44,899 nt of DNA. It comes from Escherichia phage SSL-2009a. Positions 17,009-25,173 of this stretch are shown in pieces. Both the position numbers and the translations under genes were made by a program. Under the pieces are notes generated by a model that saw only the letters and a program-made list of their open reading frames with translations, did not search any database and was not told the DNA's origin. Location of the stretch: sequence record NC_012223.2; one strand, given 5' to 3'. Position 1 is the first letter of the stretch, and every line of letters begins with the position of its first letter.

Positions 17009-17616
17009 CCACGTTTAAATTGTACGGCGTCTTAGGGCGTCGATTCGGCAAAGTGCATAAGCTGGACTGCTTCACACCGGGCGAAGGAATCACCGGCTTG
17101 TGTGTGAAGTTGCCAGGGTTACAAGACTTTTTAATGTCGGCCCACCTGGACAACATGATGTTCAAGGTGCGCAAAGGCGACCACACAATGACCGGCTATG
17201 ACGAGCTAGGCGAGTTCCACGGCAACCGCGTCGTCACCATCGCTCCGGTTATGACTGGCGCAAAAAGAGGATTGGGCCAATTGCTGGCGGGTGTCGCGAT
17301 CGTAGTGGCGTCGTTCTATACGGGCGGACTTGCTACTGCCGCTTTCGGGGCTTCGGCTGCAACCGCTGCCGCGATCGGTACGGCGACATTTTCGTTCGGG
17401 ATGTCGATGGCGCTGGGTGGCGTTATGCAATTGCTGTCGCCTCAACCGAAAGGATTGCAAACAAGGCAGGACGTGGATAACAAGGCTTCGTATGCGTTCG
17501 GGGGGCCGGTAAACACGACCGCGCAAGGCACGGCACTTGGTGTATTATGGGGCGAGCGTGAGATCGGCGGCGCTATTATTTCAGCCGGAATCGTAACCGA
17601 GGATTTGAACGAATGA
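16999..17616 (+). CDS. tail assembly protein (lambda gpI-like)
   Basis: 205 aa with glycine/alanine-rich hydrophobic central region; overlaps neighbours; position between K-like and J-like genes. Confidence 0.65.
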   Translation: MAMTTFKLYGVLGRRFGKVHKLDCFTPGEGITGLCVKLPGLQDFLMSAHLDNMMFKVRKGDHTMTGYDELGEFHGNRVVTIAPVMTGAKRGLGQLLAGVAIVVASFYTGGLATAAFGASAATAAAIGTATFSFGMSMALGGVMQLLSPQPKGLQTRQDVDNKASYAFGGPVNTTAQGTALGVLWGEREIGGAIISAGIVTEDLNE

Positions 17617-20600
17617 CGATTATCTACGACGTCACGGGCCATAAAGGCGGCGGCGGCAAACAGCACACCCCACAGGAGACGCCCGATAGCCTGCATTCGC
17701 TGGCTAAAATCCGCATCTTGCTCGCGTTGGGCGAGGGTGAATTCGAAGGCATTACGAGCGCCAGCGAATTGCGGCAGCGTGTATACCTGGACGGAACACC
17801 GATCCAGAACGCAGACCTGTCTGAAAACTTCCCCGGAGCGCGTGTGGAGTTCCGCCCCGGAACACAGCACCAGGATGTGATCCACGGATTTTCAGCGGTG
17901 GAAAGTGAGCAATCCGTTGGGGTAAAACTGGAGAACGGCACGCCGTGGGTGCGCCAGATTAACGACACCAGTTTGGACGCCGTGCGCATTCGCATCGGCA
18001 TTCCGGCCTTGTACACAAACGAAGATAATGGCGACCTGGTGGGTGGGCGCATCGACTATAAGATCGTTGTGTATACGGATAACGCCGACCCGCGTGAGTT
18101 TACCTTCGCTGCCGTTGGTAAAACAATGTCGCTATACGAGCGCGATCACCGCATCGAATTACCGCCGAACGTGAATACCGGCTGGCGCGTGGAGGTGCAC
18201 CGCATAACGGCAGACTCCACATCGGCGAAAGTGGTTAATGATATCCGGGTGCAGTCCATCACTGAGATTATCGACGCCCGCCTGCGTTACCCGCTAACCG
18301 CGCTGTTGTTTGTGGAGTTCGACGCCAAAGCGTTCCAGAACATCCCGCGCGTGTCCATCAAGTGCAAAGGCCGCAAAGTTCTAATACCGAACAACTACGA
18401 CCCGATTAATCATACTTATTCCGGGGACTGGGACGGCACGTTTAAACGCGCATGGACGGATAACCCTGCGTGGCACTGGTACGATATTTGTATTACTGAG
18501 CGCTTCGGCCTCGGTCGGCGTATCAAACCGCAAATGTTAAACCGGTACGCGCTCTACCAGATCGCGCAGCGCTGCGATCAGTTGGTCAGCGACGGCAACG
18601 GTGGTCGAGAAATCCGCTTTAAGAATGATATGTACATTCAGTCACAGACGGATGCCTGGACCGTGCTTAAGGATTTGGCTGCCATCTTCGCCGGAATGAC
18701 CTGGTGGGGCAACCAGATGTTGAATATCGTCAGTGACCAACCGGTCGCAGCAGTGTCGCACACTATCACCAACGCATCTGTTATTGATGGGCGATTCGAC
18801 TACGCATCTGGCAGCCAGAAAACTCGCTATTCCACATTCGCGGTAGCATACGGCAATCCGAAAAACCACTACGATGACGCCATCGCAACGGGCCAACGTG
18901 TTGAACTGGTACGCCGCCATAAGATTAACCGTCTTGATATTACGGCGATCGGCTGTACGCGCGAATCCGAAGCGCAACGCCGCGGGCATTGGGCGCTAAT
19001 ATCCAACCAGCTTGACCAGCAAGTTAGTTTTAAGGTGGGCATGGAAGGGTTATTCTTTATTCCTGGTAGCGTAGTCGCGATCGCGGATACAAACATTTCT
19101 GGCGGATTCGAGACTCGCGGCGGTCGCCTGTTGTCGGACCCAGGAACGCGTACCGTGCTGAACACGGACAGCGAAATCACATTCCGCCCTGGTGATAAGT
19201 TCTTGGTGCGCACCGATAGCGGAAATGTGGAGACTCGCGAGATCGCCAGCGTCAACGGCAACAAGGTCACGCTAAAAACCGCACTGGATGCCGACCCGAT
19301 TCCAGACCAACCGTTTTGCGTTGACGGCGATGATATCCAGTTGCAGAAATTCCGCATCACCGATCTGGAATATGACGACTCTACCAGCACTTTCTCGGTG
19401 CGCGGGATTGAATACAACGATAGCAAGTATGATGCCGTTGATAATGGCGCACGACTAGACCCAGGCATCTTTACGCAAGTGCCAGACGGTGTAATGAAGG
19501 GGCCGGAATCCGTTACCATCACCCCGTCGCAGATCTCATCGCAAGGCCAGCTAATCACCAACGTGGATATTGTTTTCCCGCCGGTGAAAGATGCCGTGGT
19601 GTATGAAATCCAGTGGAGGCGTACTAGCCTGCAGAATATGGAGATCCAGTGGGGTAACGACTGGGTGAATATCCCTCGCACGGCGTCGAATGGGGCGCAC
19701 ATCCCTAACGTGTTCTCCGGTAACTATCAGGCACGCGTCCGCGCAATTGGTATGGGCGAAATCTCGTCCCCGTGGGTGTCTTCCGCGATCACGCCGGTGG
19801 AAGGTCGCCTCGGTGGGCTTAACGCCCCAATCATCACCAACGCGATTTCGGGTCTGCACCAGATTCTATGGAAGTGGAACCACAACAACGCTGCGACTGA
19901 TATATCATACACCGAGCTTGAAGTGCGCAAGACGGGTGAAACGGAATGGAAATTCTTAACAAACGTCCCCTATCCTGGCGCGGAGTACGCGCAAACGTCG
20001 CTGGAGTTCGGCATATACCAGCAGTTGCGCGCCCGTGTAGCGGATAAAATCGGCAACCTGTCGGACTGGTCCGCCCCGTTCGAAGGCCAGGTGAGTGACA
20101 AAGTTGACGAGTACATGAAGGGGCTTGATGACGAGTTCTTGACTTCTGAGGATGGTAAACACTTCCAGGAAGCTATTAACACGATCCCGCAAGGCATTTA
20201 CGAATCAATGCTCACGGACGCCCAGCAGATGTTCAACGCCCGCGCCGAGTACAAAGGGATTTACGCAGAAATCAAGGTCGCATATAACGTGGCGGCAGAC
20301 GCCCACAAGGCAGTCGCGCAACTGGAAACGTTGATCGGCACTCGCCTTGACGATGCGGAAGCGGCAATCCACACGTTGCAGACAGCGCAAAGCACGCACG
20401 AGCAAGCATTCGCCCAGTATCAGCAAACTGTTGCCGCTAAGTTCGGGGAACAGGAAGCCGCCATCCAGCAGGTACAAACGGCAACGGCGGACGTGGCTGG
20501 CGCACTGGCGGAGTACAAGACCCAAGTGGCGGCACAGTTCGGGCAGCAGTCCGCCGCTATCGAGCAGAAGATGACGTCCACGTTTAACCATGCCGGTGGT

Positions 20601-21032
20601 AACGCCACATACAGCCTTAAGGCGGGCGTGACGTATAACGGGACTTACTATGATGCCGGTATGCAGCTTTCCGTCGTGGCGGAAGGCGGCGCGGTTAAAT
20701 CCCGTATAGCGTTCAAAGCGGACCAGTTCTATATCATGCACCCGTCTAACGGCACGCTGTCGTCTGCGTTTATCGTCGACGGTGGGGCGGTGTATATCGA
20801 CACAGCGCGCATCAAGGACGCGACTATTAACTTCGCGCAGATCACGGACACGCTGCAATCGAATAACTATGACGGCAACACGCGTGGTTGGCGCTTAGGG
20901 AAAGAGGGGACGTTTATCAACCTGGGAACCGGTAACGGCGGCGGGATGAAACAGACGAACACGCAAATCAGCGTTAGGGACGGAAACGGCGTGCTCCGCG
21001 TGCAGCTTGGAGAACTCACAGGTAGTTGGTAG
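17613..21032 (+). CDS. central tail fiber / host specificity protein (lambda gpJ-like)
   Basis: 1139 aa, ATGA overlap with upstream gene; size and position typical for J. Confidence 0.8.
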   Translation: MTIIYDVTGHKGGGGKQHTPQETPDSLHSLAKIRILLALGEGEFEGITSASELRQRVYLDGTPIQNADLSENFPGARVEFRPGTQHQDVIHGFSAVESEQSVGVKLENGTPWVRQINDTSLDAVRIRIGIPALYTNEDNGDLVGGRIDYKIVVYTDNADPREFTFAAVGKTMSLYERDHRIELPPNVNTGWRVEVHRITADSTSAKVVNDIRVQSITEIIDARLRYPLTALLFVEFDAKAFQNIPRVSIKCKGRKVLIPNNYDPINHTYSGDWDGTFKRAWTDNPAWHWYDICITERFGLGRRIKPQMLNRYALYQIAQRCDQLVSDGNGGREIRFKNDMYIQSQTDAWTVLKDLAAIFAGMTWWGNQMLNIVSDQPVAAVSHTITNASVIDGRFDYASGSQKTRYSTFAVAYGNPKNHYDDAIATGQRVELVRRHKINRLDITAIGCTRESEAQRRGHWALISNQLDQQVSFKVGMEGLFFIPGSVVAIADTNISGGFETRGGRLLSDPGTRTVLNTDSEITFRPGDKFLVRTDSGNVETREIASVNGNKVTLKTALDADPIPDQPFCVDGDDIQLQKFRITDLEYDDSTSTFSVRGIEYNDSKYDAVDNGARLDPGIFTQVPDGVMKGPESVTITPSQISSQGQLITNVDIVFPPVKDAVVYEIQWRRTSLQNMEIQWGNDWVNIPRTASNGAHIPNVFSGNYQARVRAIGMGEISSPWVSSAITPVEGRLGGLNAPIITNAISGLHQILWKWNHNNAATDISYTELEVRKTGETEWKFLTNVPYPGAEYAQTSLEFGIYQQLRARVADKIGNLSDWSAPFEGQVSDKVDEYMKGLDDEFLTSEDGKHFQEAINTIPQGIYESMLTDAQQMFNARAEYKGIYAEIKVAYNVAADAHKAVAQLETLIGTRLDDAEAAIHTLQTAQSTHEQAFAQYQQTVAAKFGEQEAAIQQVQTATADVAGALAEYKTQVAAQFGQQSAAIEQKMTSTFNHAGGNATYSLKAGVTYNGTYYDAGMQLSVVAEGGAVKSRIAFKADQFYIMHPSNGTLSSAFIVDGGAVYIDTARIKDATINFAQITDTLQSNNYDGNTRGWRLGKEGTFINLGTGNGGGMKQTNTQISVRDGNGVLRVQLGELTGSW

Positions 21033-21036
21033 CATA

Positions 21037-21058
21037 GGGGCTTCGGCCCCATTCTTTT
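21037..21058 (+). terminator. rho-independent terminator after J-like gene
   Basis: GGGGC-ttcg-GCCCC followed by ATTCTTTT. Confidence 0.6.
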
Positions 21059-21069
21059 GGAGGTATAGC

Positions 21070-21372
21070 ATGGCTTTCGGTGTCGCAACATGGGACGCGC
21101 AAGGGCGACCAAACAACTACGGGATCAAGCCCGTTTCGGTTGTAGGAATTATTAAACTGGCACAAGGTCAAACATCGGGGGCGTGGGCGTTCGATATTCC
21201 TTCAGGTATGAAAGTAGGTTTTGCGGTTACGCTGGACGTAGGCGGCACTACGGTCGGTCGGGCGATCCGTGCCAGCGGGAACACGATAACAGTATCTGCG
21301 GCAAACAGCGTCGGTATTGGAAACTACCCGGCGTCAGAATGTGAAGTAGTAGTTTTTGTGGAGAAAGCGTAA
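21070..21372 (+). CDS. hypothetical tail-associated protein
   Basis: 100 aa from ATG 21070 (SD GGAGG 6 nt upstream); located between J and tail fiber genes. Confidence 0.45.
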   Translation: MAFGVATWDAQGRPNNYGIKPVSVVGIIKLAQGQTSGAWAFDIPSGMKVGFAVTLDVGGTTVGRAIRASGNTITVSAANSVGIGNYPASECEVVVFVEKA

Positions 21373-21374
21373 AA

Positions 21375-22046
21375 ATGGCAAACTTCGGCGCGTTAATCGA
21401 TAACAACAACGGCAACCCATTCGTAACGCCAAACTCAACGCCGTTCGTCCTCTACGCTAAGGTGTCGGCAAATTCAGTGGACGCCGGTGCTGATTATAAA
21501 ACAGCAAGCGGGGGCGTGGATATTCCAGCGAACTATCCGGCGATGGTGTTTATGCGGTCAAATAACCGTTGCGTCCTGGCGGCGTCACGATCAGGTAACC
21601 GGATTATATTTAGCGGAAGCATTCAGGGGCAGAATAACCCACATTTTACCGTCACGGCGTACATATTCGCGCGATTCCCGCAACCGCTGCCGAGATGGGG
21701 GTTTGCTATTTGGGACGCCAGCGGGACTTGCATACTAACCAACGAGAGCAAGGTACTCACCGATTTAGTCACGGTTGGCAGCTTTGGCAATAACGGCGGC
21801 ATCAACATAGACCAGACGCTGCCGGGTAAGTACGCGGTATCACCTATGTTAATGGGCGCTACTCTGATCCAGATCTTTGTACAGGGGCAGCCGCTGATTA
21901 TCCAGATCACGGCGGGGGCAGGGGCTTACGACAACGGAAGCGGAACACGGATTAACGCCGTGGCAACACAAGCGGGGTCTGGTAGCGTCGCGGGGTATCA
22001 AAACACTGGGGTTGCTTTGACAGCGATTAACGTGGATGGAATATGA
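21375..22046 (+). CDS. hypothetical tail-associated protein
   Basis: 223 aa ORF, start 3 nt after previous stop; Gly/Asn-rich; between J and tail fiber. Confidence 0.5.
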   Translation: MANFGALIDNNNGNPFVTPNSTPFVLYAKVSANSVDAGADYKTASGGVDIPANYPAMVFMRSNNRCVLAASRSGNRIIFSGSIQGQNNPHFTVTAYIFARFPQPLPRWGFAIWDASGTCILTNESKVLTDLVTVGSFGNNGGINIDQTLPGKYAVSPMLMGATLIQIFVQGQPLIIQITAGAGAYDNGSGTRINAVATQAGSGSVAGYQNTGVALTAINVDGI

Positions 22047-22047
22047 A

Positions 22048-22063
22048 AGCCCCTTCCGGGGCT
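22048..22063. terminator. hairpin between convergent genes (AGCCCC-ttcc-GGGGCT)
   Basis: Perfect 6-bp stem between the end of 21375-22046 (+) and the stop of the lipoprotein gene (-); T-runs are weak on both sides. Confidence 0.4.
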
Positions 22064-22281
22064 TATTCGCAGGTGGTGCTTTTGAAGTGGTCGACCGACA
22101 CATACTGGAAGTTGAACGGGTAGCCCGCCCGCAACATTTTATGCCCGCTAAAATCGGCAACACCGAACACCGGGACCGAGTATTCCATGCCGCTATTAAC
22201 ATATGTCGCGTCGCAGACTTTAGTCGGCATGTTGGCACAACCCGACAAAAGAACCGCACAAATCATAATTAAAGTTTTCAT
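22063..22281 (-). CDS. lipoprotein, candidate receptor-blocking superinfection-exclusion protein (Cor/Llp-like by context)
   Basis: 72 aa from ATG 22281 (SD AGGGGA); signal peptide with lipobox LLSGC; antisense gene directly upstream of the tail fiber gene. Confidence 0.55.
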   Translation of the reverse strand: MKTLIMICAVLLSGCANMPTKVCDATYVNSGMEYSVPVFGVADFSGHKMLRAGYPFNFQYVSVDHFKSTTCE

Positions 22282-22312
22282 GGTATCATCCCCTATATTT
22301 GGTTGAGTTTTA

Positions 22313-22345
22313 GTATTACACCGCTCGACCAGGATTGCAACCAAT
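22313..22345 (-). promoter_or_regulatory. candidate sigma70-type promoter for the lipoprotein gene (extended -35 ATTGGTTGCAAT, -10 TAATAC)
   Basis: On the minus strand: ATTGG-TTGCAA, 16 nt spacer, TAATAC; TTGCAA at 22335-22340, -10 at 22313-22318. Confidence 0.45.
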
Positions 22346-22361
22346 TTATGAGGATTCAGCT

Positions 22362-23978
22362 ATGGCAGCGGGTACACTATCCGTAACGAATAACAGCAAG
22401 GCGGTTGTCGGGGTAGGCACGACGTTTACCGCGTTTAAAGCTGGCGACTTCTTAACGCTGGTGGTAGGACAAGTCCCCTACACCGTGGCAATCGCGTCCA
22501 TTGAAAGCGCAACCGCGCTCACGCTGGTGTTACCGTTCGACGGACCCACGGCCACCGGCCTTGCCTGGGATGGCGTTGCGCGCGATACCATGTCACTGGC
22601 GACGATGGGCGTAACAGTCCAGGCACAGAAAGCATTGCGCTTGATGATTGCGGATGAAAACAACTGGCGTGCAATCTTCGGCGACGCTGAAGAGATCACC
22701 GTTACGCTGCCCAACGGGCAAGTTATGCAGGGTATGTCATGGGGCTACCTGTCGCAATTGATGAAGCAGATCGACCCCGTTGAAATGCGCAACCTACAAC
22801 AACAAGCCGCCGCGTCTGAAGCAGCAGCGCAAGGATTTCGCAATGAGGCCGAAGGCTTCAAGAACGATGCCAATACCATCAAGACGCAGACCAACCAAAT
22901 CAAGGCCGATACGCAGGCGGTCCACGACGCCACCAACACCATCAAGACGCAGACGAATCAGATTAAGGCCGATACGCAAGCCATCAAGGACCAGACGAAC
23001 CAGATCAAGACGGATACCGGCATTATTCGGGACCAAGCCAATACGGCGAAGACTGACGCGCAAGCCGCCAGAGATGCCGCGAAAGGGTATCGGGATGAAG
23101 CCGAAGACTTCAAAAACGCGGTCAACCCTACGCAATTCATGAAGACGTCTCAGAACCTGGCAGACGTAGCAAATCAATCAGCGGCACGCTCTAATCTTGG
23201 TCTTGGGTCGGTAGCTACGGAGAACACCGTTCCGATCGAGAAAGGAGGAACCGCCGCGACAACGGCAGCGGCGGCACGCTCTAATTTCGGGTTGGGCGAA
23301 AACAATAACGTAAAACTTGGTACGTTGCGCCTAAACGGTGGTGAATCGCTAGTCTTCAATGATGTCGAAAGAAACGGCTTAGCACTATCAAACGTCTCAT
23401 ATGGGATAGATAGTTGGGTAGGCTTCACCATGCACAAATGGTACGCCGACTGGACCCGCGCAGGAATTGTGCGTGCGGGGGACACCCACCTGTCAGACTA
23501 CCGCGTCCACGTGTGGAAAGATGGTATGACTGAATCGCTATTCCGCTTCCTACCGGACGGCAGGCTTATTAGTGGTAACAGCGGCAACCCGTCGGTTAAC
23601 GAGTTCCAGAAAGCGGCGCTATCGGACCGCGACCTTAAAAAAGAAATCAAATACACGGACGGCGAGGAAAGCTACAACCGCGTTCGCCAGTGGCTTCCGG
23701 CGATGTTCAAGTATAAGGAGTCGGACGTACAGCGATACGGCCTTATCGCGCAGGATCTGGCAAGGATTGACCCGGAATACGTGCATTTGCTGCCGGGTTA
23801 CGCCATTTATGAGGACGTCAAGGGGGTCGACGAGGAAGGGAATGAGGTTGTAGTCGACCGCAAGGAGATCGGGTATACCGACGATGTGCTGTCTTTGGAT
23901 AGTAACGTGCTGTTGATGGACCTGTGTGCCGCCTTCGTCCACCTGTTGCATAAAGTGGAGAAGCTGGAAGGTAAATAA
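22362..23978 (+). CDS. tail fiber protein with internal 21-residue repeats and C-terminal chaperone-like domain
   Basis: 538 aa from ATG 22362 (SD GAGGA); tandem TIKTQTNQIKADTQA repeats; C-terminal region (DRDLKKEIKYTDGEESY...GLIAQDLARIDPEYV) resembles the intramolecular chaperone of S74-type fibers (by recollection). Confidence 0.7.
   Translation: MAAGTLSVTNNSKAVVGVGTTFTAFKAGDFLTLVVGQVPYTVAIASIESATALTLVLPFDGPTATGLAWDGVARDTMSLATMGVTVQAQKALRLMIADENNWRAIFGDAEEITVTLPNGQVMQGMSWGYLSQLMKQIDPVEMRNLQQQAAASEAAAQGFRNEAEGFKNDANTIKTQTNQIKADTQAVHDATNTIKTQTNQIKADTQAIKDQTNQIKTDTGIIRDQANTAKTDAQAARDAAKGYRDEAEDFKNAVNPTQFMKTSQNLADVANQSAARSNLGLGSVATENTVPIEKGGTAATTAAAARSNFGLGENNNVKLGTLRLNGGESLVFNDVERNGLALSNVSYGIDSWVGFTMHKWYADWTRAGIVRAGDTHLSDYRVHVWKDGMTESLFRFLPDGRLISGNSGNPSVNEFQKAALSDRDLKKEIKYTDGEESYNRVRQWLPAMFKYKESDVQRYGLIAQDLARIDPEYVHLLPGYAIYEDVKGVDEEGNEVVVDRKEIGYTDDVLSLDSNVLLMDLCAAFVHLLHKVEKLEGK
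22836..23120 (+). repeat. tandem 63-bp coding repeats within the tail fiber gene
   Basis: accatcaagacgcagac...aaggccgatacgca repeated at 22875 and 22938 with a third degenerate copy; flanked by repeated FKN(D/A) segments. Confidence 0.6.
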
Positions 23979-23984
23979 GGAGAA

Positions 23985-24008
23985 GGGGCCGTGCGGCCCC
24001 TTTTTTAG
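23985..24008 (+). terminator. rho-independent terminator after tail fiber gene
   Basis: GGGGCC-gtgc-GGCCCC followed by TTTTTT; marks the convergent junction with the minus-strand operon. Confidence 0.7.
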
Positions 24009-24580
24009 TTTGAGTTTTCCCAGTCCATTTTGCGCCGCACCAGCGGGCTTTCGTAGTATTCTTTACCGTCCACTTCCACTAAAGGCCAATCGTTAACAAT
24101 CACGTATGGCTCCGCGACATCTTCAATCACGCCGCGCGCGCTATGTTGTCCGAACGATACGCCCACCAGGATAACACCGGCAACGCGACGGGTAAGGTAT
24201 TCGCGAGCGCAACGTGCCTCAACCAGTCCGCGACGGATGCCGCTGGTAGCTTTGACTTCGTAGGTCCAGACGGCATCAATCATATGTTCGCGGAAGTCGG
24301 GACCGGATTTTACCTTGCGCTTGCCAACCATGATAATATCGCCGCGGTCGATAGTGTTAGCGCTAAACAGGCCGGTACGCATTAGCAAACCTTGCGGGAT
24401 ACAGCTACGCCCGCCCGCCTGCCCTTCGAGGTACATGCCTGCAAACATTTCGCCCAGCACACCGACGAGTCTGCTTTGCTTGCACGCGTCAGACTTGTAT
24501 CGCCACTGTTCAAACTCGATGCTTGCAATCATCGCCGCCAGGTGGAATTGTTTACCGGTTATTTCATATTCGCCGTACAT
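24005..24580 (-). CDS. hypothetical protein, possible PD-(D/E)xK-type nuclease
   Basis: 191 aa, SD GAGGGA; D...EVK arrangement (GDIIMVG ... TYEVKA) weakly suggestive of a restriction-endonuclease-like fold; last gene of the leftward operon. Confidence 0.45.
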   Translation of the reverse strand: MYGEYEITGKQFHLAAMIASIEFEQWRYKSDACKQSRLVGVLGEMFAGMYLEGQAGGRSCIPQGLLMRTGLFSANTIDRGDIIMVGKRKVKSGPDFREHMIDAVWTYEVKATSGIRRGLVEARCAREYLTRRVAGVILVGVSFGQHSARGVIEDVAEPYVIVNDWPLVEVDGKEYYESPLVRRKMDWENSN

Positions 24581-24621: not shown

Positions 24622-25173
24622 TTATTTAAGTGCGCCAGTCACCAGTGTTTTTTCCATGTTACGGAAATCTTCCTGCGTCATGCAGATTTTCGATCCGTCT
24701 TCGCCGGTGAGCACGACCATAGGCTGGACGTCCTGGGCTACAACTCCAAAATTGGCGGCTGTAACCGTTTTACCGGGGGTAAATGCGCCGCCTGTTTTGA
24801 CGGGCCAACCTTTGAGGCTGTCGAATTGTGCTGCCGTTGTATCGATCTGAATCTCGTCATGTACGGTCATGTAAGACTCGCCCAGCAGGGCGGCATACGC
24901 CACCAGATCCACGATGTTATCTTCCTGGTGCTTACGGTGCTGGCGCACCAGCTTCAGGCAGATCAGGAAGGTCCAGGCTTCTTGCTCTGTAAGGTCGCGA
25001 CCGGTAAGCGCGTTAAACACGGCTGCGATTTGTTTAGCGCTGCGTTCTTCTTTCGCGTTGTCATAGCCGTTTTCTTTCCCGCGCTGTTCCATAGTGGTGG
25101 CGGCGTTTTTGCAGTATTCGTATGCTTTCACAGTATTACCCTTTTTATTGAGGGGCTGTATTGCCCCCGACAC
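24622..25173 (-). CDS. hypothetical protein (start uncertain: GTG 25173 or ATG 25092)
   Basis: 183 aa ORF; upstream palindrome and TATAGT lie immediately 5' of the GTG; no motif recognised. Confidence 0.45.
   Translation of the reverse strand: MSGAIQPLNKKGNTVKAYEYCKNAATTMEQRGKENGYDNAKEERSAKQIAAVFNALTGRDLTEQEAWTFLICLKLVRQHRKHQEDNIVDLVAYAALLGESYMTVHDEIQIDTTAAQFDSLKGWPVKTGGAFTPGKTVTAANFGVVAQDVQPMVVLTGEDGSKICMTQEDFRNMEKTLVTGALK

Follow-up and report, generated by a model that had tools for sequence, protein, structure and literature searches.

The gene encoded on the minus strand between the tail genes and the tail fibre gene of Escherichia phage SSL-2009a is very probably cor, and its product would be a superinfection-exclusion lipoprotein that is directed against the outer-membrane transporter FhuA in a virulent siphophage of the genus Dhillonvirus. 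The existence of this antisense lipoprotein gene is confirmed, far beyond chance, by full-length matches to curated Cor models and by matches in 243 phage records. All positions refer to the window analysed, which is the whole of record NC_012223.2 (44,899 nucleotides).

The antisense gene and the Cor family

A preliminary description of this DNA had claimed a 72-residue lipoprotein on the minus strand at 22063-22345, lying between the tail genes and the tail fibre gene. The open reading frame is present and runs from an ATG at 22281 to a TAA stop at 22065..22063, so that the cor coding sequence occupies 22063..22281 (-) and encodes the 72-residue product MKTLIMICAVLLSGCANMPTKVCDATYVNSGMEYSVPVFGVADFSGHKMLRAGYPFNFQYVSVDHFKSTTCE. 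The lower end of the earlier span was correct; its upper end takes in the promoter and a 93-residue frame starting with TTG (22063..22344) that appears in a mechanical list of ORFs. This longer frame was rejected as the true gene and the ATG at 22281 is considered the real start, because a ribosome-binding site (AGGGGA, 22294..22289 on the minus strand) is located 7 nt upstream of it, every homologue starts at that methionine, and relatives annotate a gene of 219 nt. The AGG-GA of the ribosome-binding site is conserved in the 14 Dhillonvirus genomes that were aligned. The location was also described correctly, as the gp23-like gene ends at 22046 and the fibre gene starts at 22362; cor is convergent with the former and divergent from the latter.

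The N-terminal part of the product is MKTLIMICAVLLSGC, which is followed by ANMPTK...TTCE. The sequence shows Lys2, then a hydrophobic core and a lipobox (L-S-G-C) ending in Cys15, in agreement with the signal peptide and lipobox claimed earlier, and lipidation is predicted. The signal peptide comprises residues 1-14 (MKTLIMICAVLLSG) and, together with the codon of the putatively lipidated Cys15 (22239..22237), spans 22237..22281 on the minus strand; cleavage is predicted between MKTLIMICAVLLSG and the cysteine. The phi80 homologue is annotated in its record as processed by signal peptidase II. Under the sorting rules for lipoproteins an alanine at position +2 is not the aspartate retention signal, and since the +2 residue of the cor product is alanine, sorting to the outer membrane would be expected.

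The family assignment rests on two curated models. NCBIfam NF047972, an equivalog model named "phage exclusion lipoprotein Cor" with a cut-off of 31 bits, matches residues 2-72 with 60.2 bits, and PHROG 1119 ("Cor superinfection exclusion protein") matches the full length, residues 1-72, with E=6e-28. These matches, together with the gp22/gp23 cassette described below, establish the protein as a Cor homologue and bear out the earlier suggestion that it is a lipoprotein of the Cor/Llp type. The comparison with known Cor sequences that had been proposed as a check gives 51% identity to Cor of T1 (50.7%), 43% to gene 24 (Cor) of N15 and 40% to Cor of phi80. The family to which the protein thus belongs over its full length includes Cor of T1, phi80, N15, HK022 and mEp167, and the likeness extends to the lipobox, two conserved cysteines, a RAGYPF motif and the position downstream of gpJ, gp22 and gp23. 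The SSL-2009a protein is 3-6 residues shorter than the known Cor proteins and is without the 3-residue insert that precedes Cys23 in Cor of phi80 and N15. In T1, as in SSL-2009a, cor and the tail genes are on opposite strands. The temperate phages phi80 and N15 have it on the strand of the tail genes, and there it serves lysogenic conversion from the prophage.

An alignment of 22 Cor homologues contains four invariant residues (C23, G53, F66 and C71) and eight nearly invariant ones (G14, C15, G31, V36, A52, Y54, P55 and F56). The lipobox residues G14 and C15 are among the latter, and the RAGYPF motif is conserved across the homologues with R51 variable. C23 and C71 probably form a disulphide pair in the mature domain. 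A Pfam scan of the 72-residue protein gave nothing meaningful, its only match being a sub-threshold one to a herpesvirus family; Pfam holds no Cor model. A word-indexed protein search returned 6 close relatives only and an exhaustive search of representative sequences returned only 12 clusters at E<=1e-3. The Cor family is small and largely restricted to phages.

The 243 phage records that were matched by tblastn include annotated Cor genes at identities from 40% to 97%. KS_S9 is at 97%, most of the other Dhillonvirus matches are at roughly 88-94%, and many of these already carry an annotation as Cor or superinfection exclusion protein. The annotated Dhillonvirus genes (EpYD_16 of YD-2008.s, gp55 of UAE_MI-01, gp19 of JLBYU37 and that of KS_S9) are this gene at the corresponding locus, their proteins being 89-97% identical to the SSL-2009a product with only a few substitutions. 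Judged by these comparisons, the antisense gene is an ordinary member of the Cor family, in a genus that has been sampled well, and is already annotated in dozens of related E. coli phages, and by analogy with the known family members the SSL-2009a allele would be expected to confer exclusion. Our literature search found no experiment on any Dhillonvirus Cor.

Public annotation of the gene is uneven. Record SM_S22 (PP627283.1, 292..528 of the compared piece) is without a cor coding sequence and has two small plus-strand ORFs drawn across it instead, the gene is labelled 'hypothetical protein' in several records, and the annotation is likewise uneven in B2, KS_S9, GeorgBuechner and PaulFeyerabend. 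Eight records labelled 'Campylobacter phage' (for example MG065640.1, Campylobacter phage A14b) carry a T1-like cor of ~53% identity in genomes of ~47 kb. These genomes resemble Drexlerviridae coliphages, which may point to a mistaken host label or to contamination.

Genome context and the putative receptor

Sequence comparison places SSL-2009a in Dhillonvirus, the HK578/SO-1-like siphophages of E. coli. The 3-kb cor locus is 92.5% identical at the DNA level to phage UAE_MI-01, and the locus is matched by 156 phage records, nearly all of them Escherichia phages. The gene order around cor begins with a gpJ-like tail tip protein of 1139 residues (17613..21032 (+); Pfam FNIII-A_GpJ, Phage-tail_3 and Phage_Tail_Tip), whose gene is followed by a hairpin that was found by the hairpin scan (21037..21050). 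Next are a gp22-like gene of 100 codons (21070..21372 (+); PHROG 557, E=4e-32) and a gp23-like gene of 223 codons (21375..22046 (+); PHROG 425, E=3e-66), the first and second genes of the FhuA-type cassette, of which the latter encodes a candidate receptor-binding component. On the far side of cor is the lateral tail fibre gene (22362..23978 (+); 538 residues; PHROG 1980, E=2e-130), the product of which ends in a C-terminal Peptidase_S74 domain, an intramolecular chaperone (Pfam PF13884).

Three further features were observed to the right of cor. The shaft of the tail fibre (22870..23012 (+)) contains 2.3 copies of a 63-bp (21-residue) tandem repeat encoding the motif ...NTIKTQTNQIKADTQA..., and between the fibre gene and a convergent gene of 191 codons (24005..24580 (-)) there is a strong hairpin (23979..24006) that is rich in GC, has T runs on either strand and is likely to be a bidirectional terminator that separates the structural block from the early/replication block. 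The 183-residue protein encoded at 24622..25173 (-) matches PHROG 9871, which has no assigned function; weaker matches are to PHROGs labelled 'phosphofructokinase' (E=1.5e-19), a surprising name for an early phage protein of this size.

The gene order gpJ, gp22-like, gp23-like, cor is that of T1, phi80 and N15 and constitutes the full published FhuA-type cassette. The gp22-like protein is 75% identical to gp22 of phi80, 73% to gp22 of N15 and 48% to the T1 homologue; the corresponding values for the gp23-like protein are 48%, 55% and 47%. Previous work on the BASEL collection determined that a receptor-specific locus for the receptor-binding protein, with its cognate exclusion protein, lies downstream of gpJ (PMC8594841), and a 2026 analysis reported the combination of g22, g23 and cor in that collection to be confined to Drexlerviridae and Dhillonvirus phages that use FhuA (PMC13164509). 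The FhuA dependence of one Dhillonvirus, JLBYU37, is experimental (PMC10373560). Receptor assignments for Bas15-17 were not found in the main text of the BASEL paper. From the type of the cassette and the relationship to JLBYU37, we infer that SSL-2009a uses FhuA as its terminal receptor.

Membership in the Cor family alone does not fix the target, because Cor-like proteins also accompany some phages that use BtuB (PMC13164509). The SSL-2009a protein could in principle be an exclusion lipoprotein of this family that acts on BtuB or on another TonB-dependent transporter; the Cor-like proteins on record include those of the BtuB-using Markadamsvirinae and of one group of Tempevirinae (PMC13164509). 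The receptor-binding allele of SSL-2009a has also diverged from that of its FhuA-dependent relative: g22 and g23 are 98% identical to those of YD-2008.s and only 72% and 53% identical, respectively, to those of JLBYU37. However, Cor itself is 89% identical to that of JLBYU37, the complete cassette has been found only with FhuA users (PMC13164509), and the gp22-like and gp23-like proteins have their counterparts in phi80 and N15, both classical FhuA phages, at the identities given above. A target other than FhuA is consequently very unlikely, and FhuA is the predicted target in what follows.

Transcription signals and exchange at the lipobox

The preliminary description had given cor its own near-consensus promoter, read as TTGCAA, 16 nt and TAATAC. 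Near-consensus strength is not borne out, since this reading matches 4+3 of the 12 consensus positions and was not among the sites given by a sigma-70 scan. The -10 element was probably also placed one base out of register. Shifting it gives a candidate sigma-70 promoter at 22312..22340 (-) that consists of a -35 element TTGCAA (22340..22335), a 17-nt spacer, and an extended -10 element made up of TG (22320..22319), one free base and AATACT (22317..22312). This reading matches only 8/12 positions and is for that reason likewise absent from the consensus scan. Transcription from it would be predicted to start ~7 nt past AATACT, near 22305. As the scans reported neither this promoter nor the hairpin at the other end of the gene, comparative conservation and folding were used instead.

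For the promoter, the 80 nt that separate cor from the fibre gene were aligned from 14 Dhillonvirus genomes. TTGCA, TG and AATACT are invariant in 13/14 genomes and 6/17 spacer positions are variable. The base that had been taken earlier as the first of the -10 element is changed from T to C in YD-2008.s, bov16 and BS4, and it is the free 'n' of TG-n. In LM40P1, the most divergent genome, TG-n-AATACT is lost, but TTGCAA is intact and TATATT stands in the place of AATACT, with the spacing unchanged. This conservation is good comparative support for a real cor promoter, albeit one that is weak by consensus. The notion of a promoter belonging to cor, along with its TTGCAA element, is retained from the preliminary description. 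On the plus strand a promoter-like site (CCGACA-16-CATAAT, 9/12; 22242..22269) lies inside the codons for the cor signal peptide, ~90 nt before the fibre ATG; it is not kept in the TheodorHerzl allele. It could be a promoter of the fibre gene and impose a second constraint on the conserved stretch.

At the 3' end of cor, a hairpin (AAGCCCC-GGAA-GGGGCTT, 22047..22064 (-)) occupies exactly the interval from the stop codon of cor to that of the convergent g23. The predicted RNA fold has an energy of -15.7 kcal/mol (z=-2.3). The terminator scan did not flag this hairpin, as some of the T run is taken up by the extended stem. The T-rich tail is found on the cor strand only, which makes the hairpin a likely cor terminator; it should stop cor transcripts without halting late rightward transcription on its way to the fibre gene. 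In the phi80 record, cor is annotated with a promoter, a start of transcription and a terminator. The SSL-2009a gene may be a moron, a self-contained transcription unit within a late operon, having a conserved candidate extended -10 promoter and a 3' hairpin, neither of which was reported by the consensus scans. In other Dhillonvirus alleles, operons of a lipoprotein and a receptor-binding protein are headed by the same promoter region, and for this reason early expression of cor is not to be assumed.

These other alleles delimit the region that is shared within the genus. About half of the Dhillonvirus genomes match SSL-2009a only from the lipobox codon rightwards (~22234..22420). The stretch 22234..22361, which extends from the promoter across the 5'UTR to codon 16 and so takes in Cys15-Ala16, has 93-97% DNA identity to genomes whose mature lipoprotein and receptor-binding protein are unrelated to those of SSL-2009a. 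The signal peptide MKTLIMICAVLLSGCA is identical at 16/16 positions in the lipoproteins of WFI and StarDew, the mature parts of which are without similarity to Cor. In WFI, StarDew and SO-1 a gene for a receptor-binding protein of ~320 residues comes next after the non-Cor lipoprotein gene, in the same orientation, and TheodorHerzl and PNS1 have yet other alleles in this slot. On the left side (20940..21070), similarity is lost within the C-terminal codons of gpJ, and the last ~30 codons of gpJ as well as the hairpin at 21037..21050 differ between the cor-type and non-cor-type genomes. The sharing from the promoter to the lipobox and the loss of similarity inside gpJ suggest that the receptor module is swapped as a block with its right junction at the lipobox.

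The slot is the one in which small siphophages encode other receptor-specific exclusion lipoproteins such as Rtp45 (the LptD type, PDB 9RPS), which are also paired with a receptor-binding protein downstream of gpJ. The Dhillonvirus genes of this type have the promoter, the 5'UTR and often the signal peptide in common with SSL-2009a cor. Their mature domains are unrelated to Cor, with no BLASTP similarity beyond residue 16, their receptor-binding protein is encoded on the strand of the lipoprotein, and their target is LptDE rather than FhuA (PMC12685063). It is possible, though we hold it slightly below an even chance, that the promoter, 5'UTR and 16 codons form a fixed 'socket' into which unrelated mature exclusion lipoproteins are swapped along with the genes for receptor-binding proteins, the junction being exactly at the lipobox. 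If so, a single event would switch both the receptor and the matching exclusion protein and leave the signals for expression and export undisturbed. A dip in similarity at the receptor locus was already reported in the BASEL paper (PMC8594841), and a junction at the lipobox would be a refinement of that observation rather than a discovery.

Predicted fold and mode of action

T5 Llp (PDB 8A60) is, as is predicted for the cor product, a small outer-membrane lipoprotein of a virulent siphophage; both are encoded beside receptor-recognition genes. The neighbours of cor in SSL-2009a are gp22/gp23-like genes and not an annotated receptor-binding protein of the pb5 type, identity between the two lipoproteins is only ~24% in the structural alignment, and FhuA binding by the SSL-2009a protein is predicted. 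The comparison with Llp that had been proposed earlier gave a divided result. By structure, Llp is the best match in the PDB; by single-sequence search, Cor had no significant match in the PDB and Llp was found at E=0.85.

The small size of the Cor family limits the depth of the alignment available to AlphaFold2. The model built from the 22-sequence alignment is confident nevertheless, with a mean pLDDT of 85 that rises to ~95 in the mature domain, which has four beta strands. Among 350,542 PDB chains, the top Foldseek match to the model is 8a60_B, the Llp chain of a crystal structure with FhuA (rmsd 2.8 A over 51 columns, TM 0.50/0.57, 24% identity). The E value of this match (0.05) is not significant alone, and small barrels of the Tudor/chromo-like kind come next. 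A profile of the Cor family against the PDB also placed 8a60_B first (E=0.0022), the aligned part being residues 1-43, much of which is signal peptide, with only ~25 mature residues. The predicted structure points to a small beta fold that is common to Cor and Llp.

This agrees with published comparisons, in which T1-like Cor and Llp superimpose with a TM of 0.69 (PMC13164509) and are placed in one family with a common disulphide (PMC9586334; bioRxiv 10.64898/2026.03.26.714494). According to published work the two proteins, which have the same fold, probably also act in the same way, by binding FhuA on the periplasmic side and closing the extracellular surface to phages allosterically (PMC9586334; PMC13164509; bioRxiv 10.64898/2026.03.26.714494). 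For homologues, expression of Cor is reported to exclude phages that depend on FhuA and to inactivate the functions of that transporter (Uc-Mass 2004, as summarized in bioRxiv 10.64898/2026.03.26.714494), and the same preprint notes that the mechanism of Cor has yet to be demonstrated directly.

For SSL-2009a we propose the following sequence of events. After genome entry, host RNA polymerase would start cor transcripts at the gene's own promoter, within the 80 nt that separate it from the divergent fibre gene, and these would end at the hairpin that cor and the convergent g23 have in common. The precursor would be exported, lipidated at Cys15 and cleaved by signal peptidase II. The mature protein, with 57 residues, a beta-rich fold and probably a Cys23-Cys71 disulphide, may then bind FhuA, a TonB-dependent transporter, on its periplasmic face and make its extracellular face unusable as a phage receptor, as in the structure of T5 Llp. 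As an outcome, FhuA-dependent phages (SSL-2009a itself, T1, T5 and phi80) could not superinfect the infected cell, and released progeny would not be wasted on FhuA in cell debris. Cor exclusion reportedly needs other outer-membrane proteins as well, a finding attributed to Arguijo-Hernandez et al. in 2018.

The closest complete genome has annotated genes for DNA polymerase, helicase-primase and lysis, and no integrase or repressor is annotated in it. SSL-2009a accordingly appears virulent by the annotation of this relative, in contrast to phi80 and N15, and the role of cor would be akin to lytic conversion, as for Llp. The protection of progeny, whereby FhuA on debris and vesicles is occupied and DNA is not injected into dead material, would suit a phage that has no lysogen to protect, and this role has been proposed for T5 Llp and for Sie of T1-like phages (PMC13164509). 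Exclusion and progeny protection both follow from one receptor blockade and cannot be separated by sequence. Progeny protection is a second benefit of that blockade and not a rival mechanism, and it is highly improbable as the main selected function.

It is scarcely credible that the protein is instead an accessory of lysis or virion assembly, such as an outer-membrane spanin subunit or a chaperone of the receptor-binding protein: the lipoprotein gene is co-transcribed with that of the receptor-binding protein in other Dhillonvirus alleles and there is a weak PHROG match to an Rz-like spanin (E=0.037), but the spanin match covers the signal peptide only (residues 3-23) and was rejected on this account, the full-length Cor match is ~25 orders of magnitude stronger, the closest relative has its lysis genes in another part of the genome, and a lipoprotein, once in the periplasm, is unable to take part in tail assembly in the cytoplasm.

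The preferred reading remains a Cor lipoprotein that acts on FhuA. The Cor family, its link to gpJ, gp22 and gp23, its presence in FhuA-using Dhillonvirus and the Llp-like fold are all published, and nothing here is new to phage biology. The value of the assignment is mainly one of annotation, as cor marks SSL-2009a as a probable FhuA user. It also leads to the prediction that cells infected with SSL-2009a would be refractory to T1, T5, phi80 and their relatives, which would be relevant to the choice of phages for cocktails.
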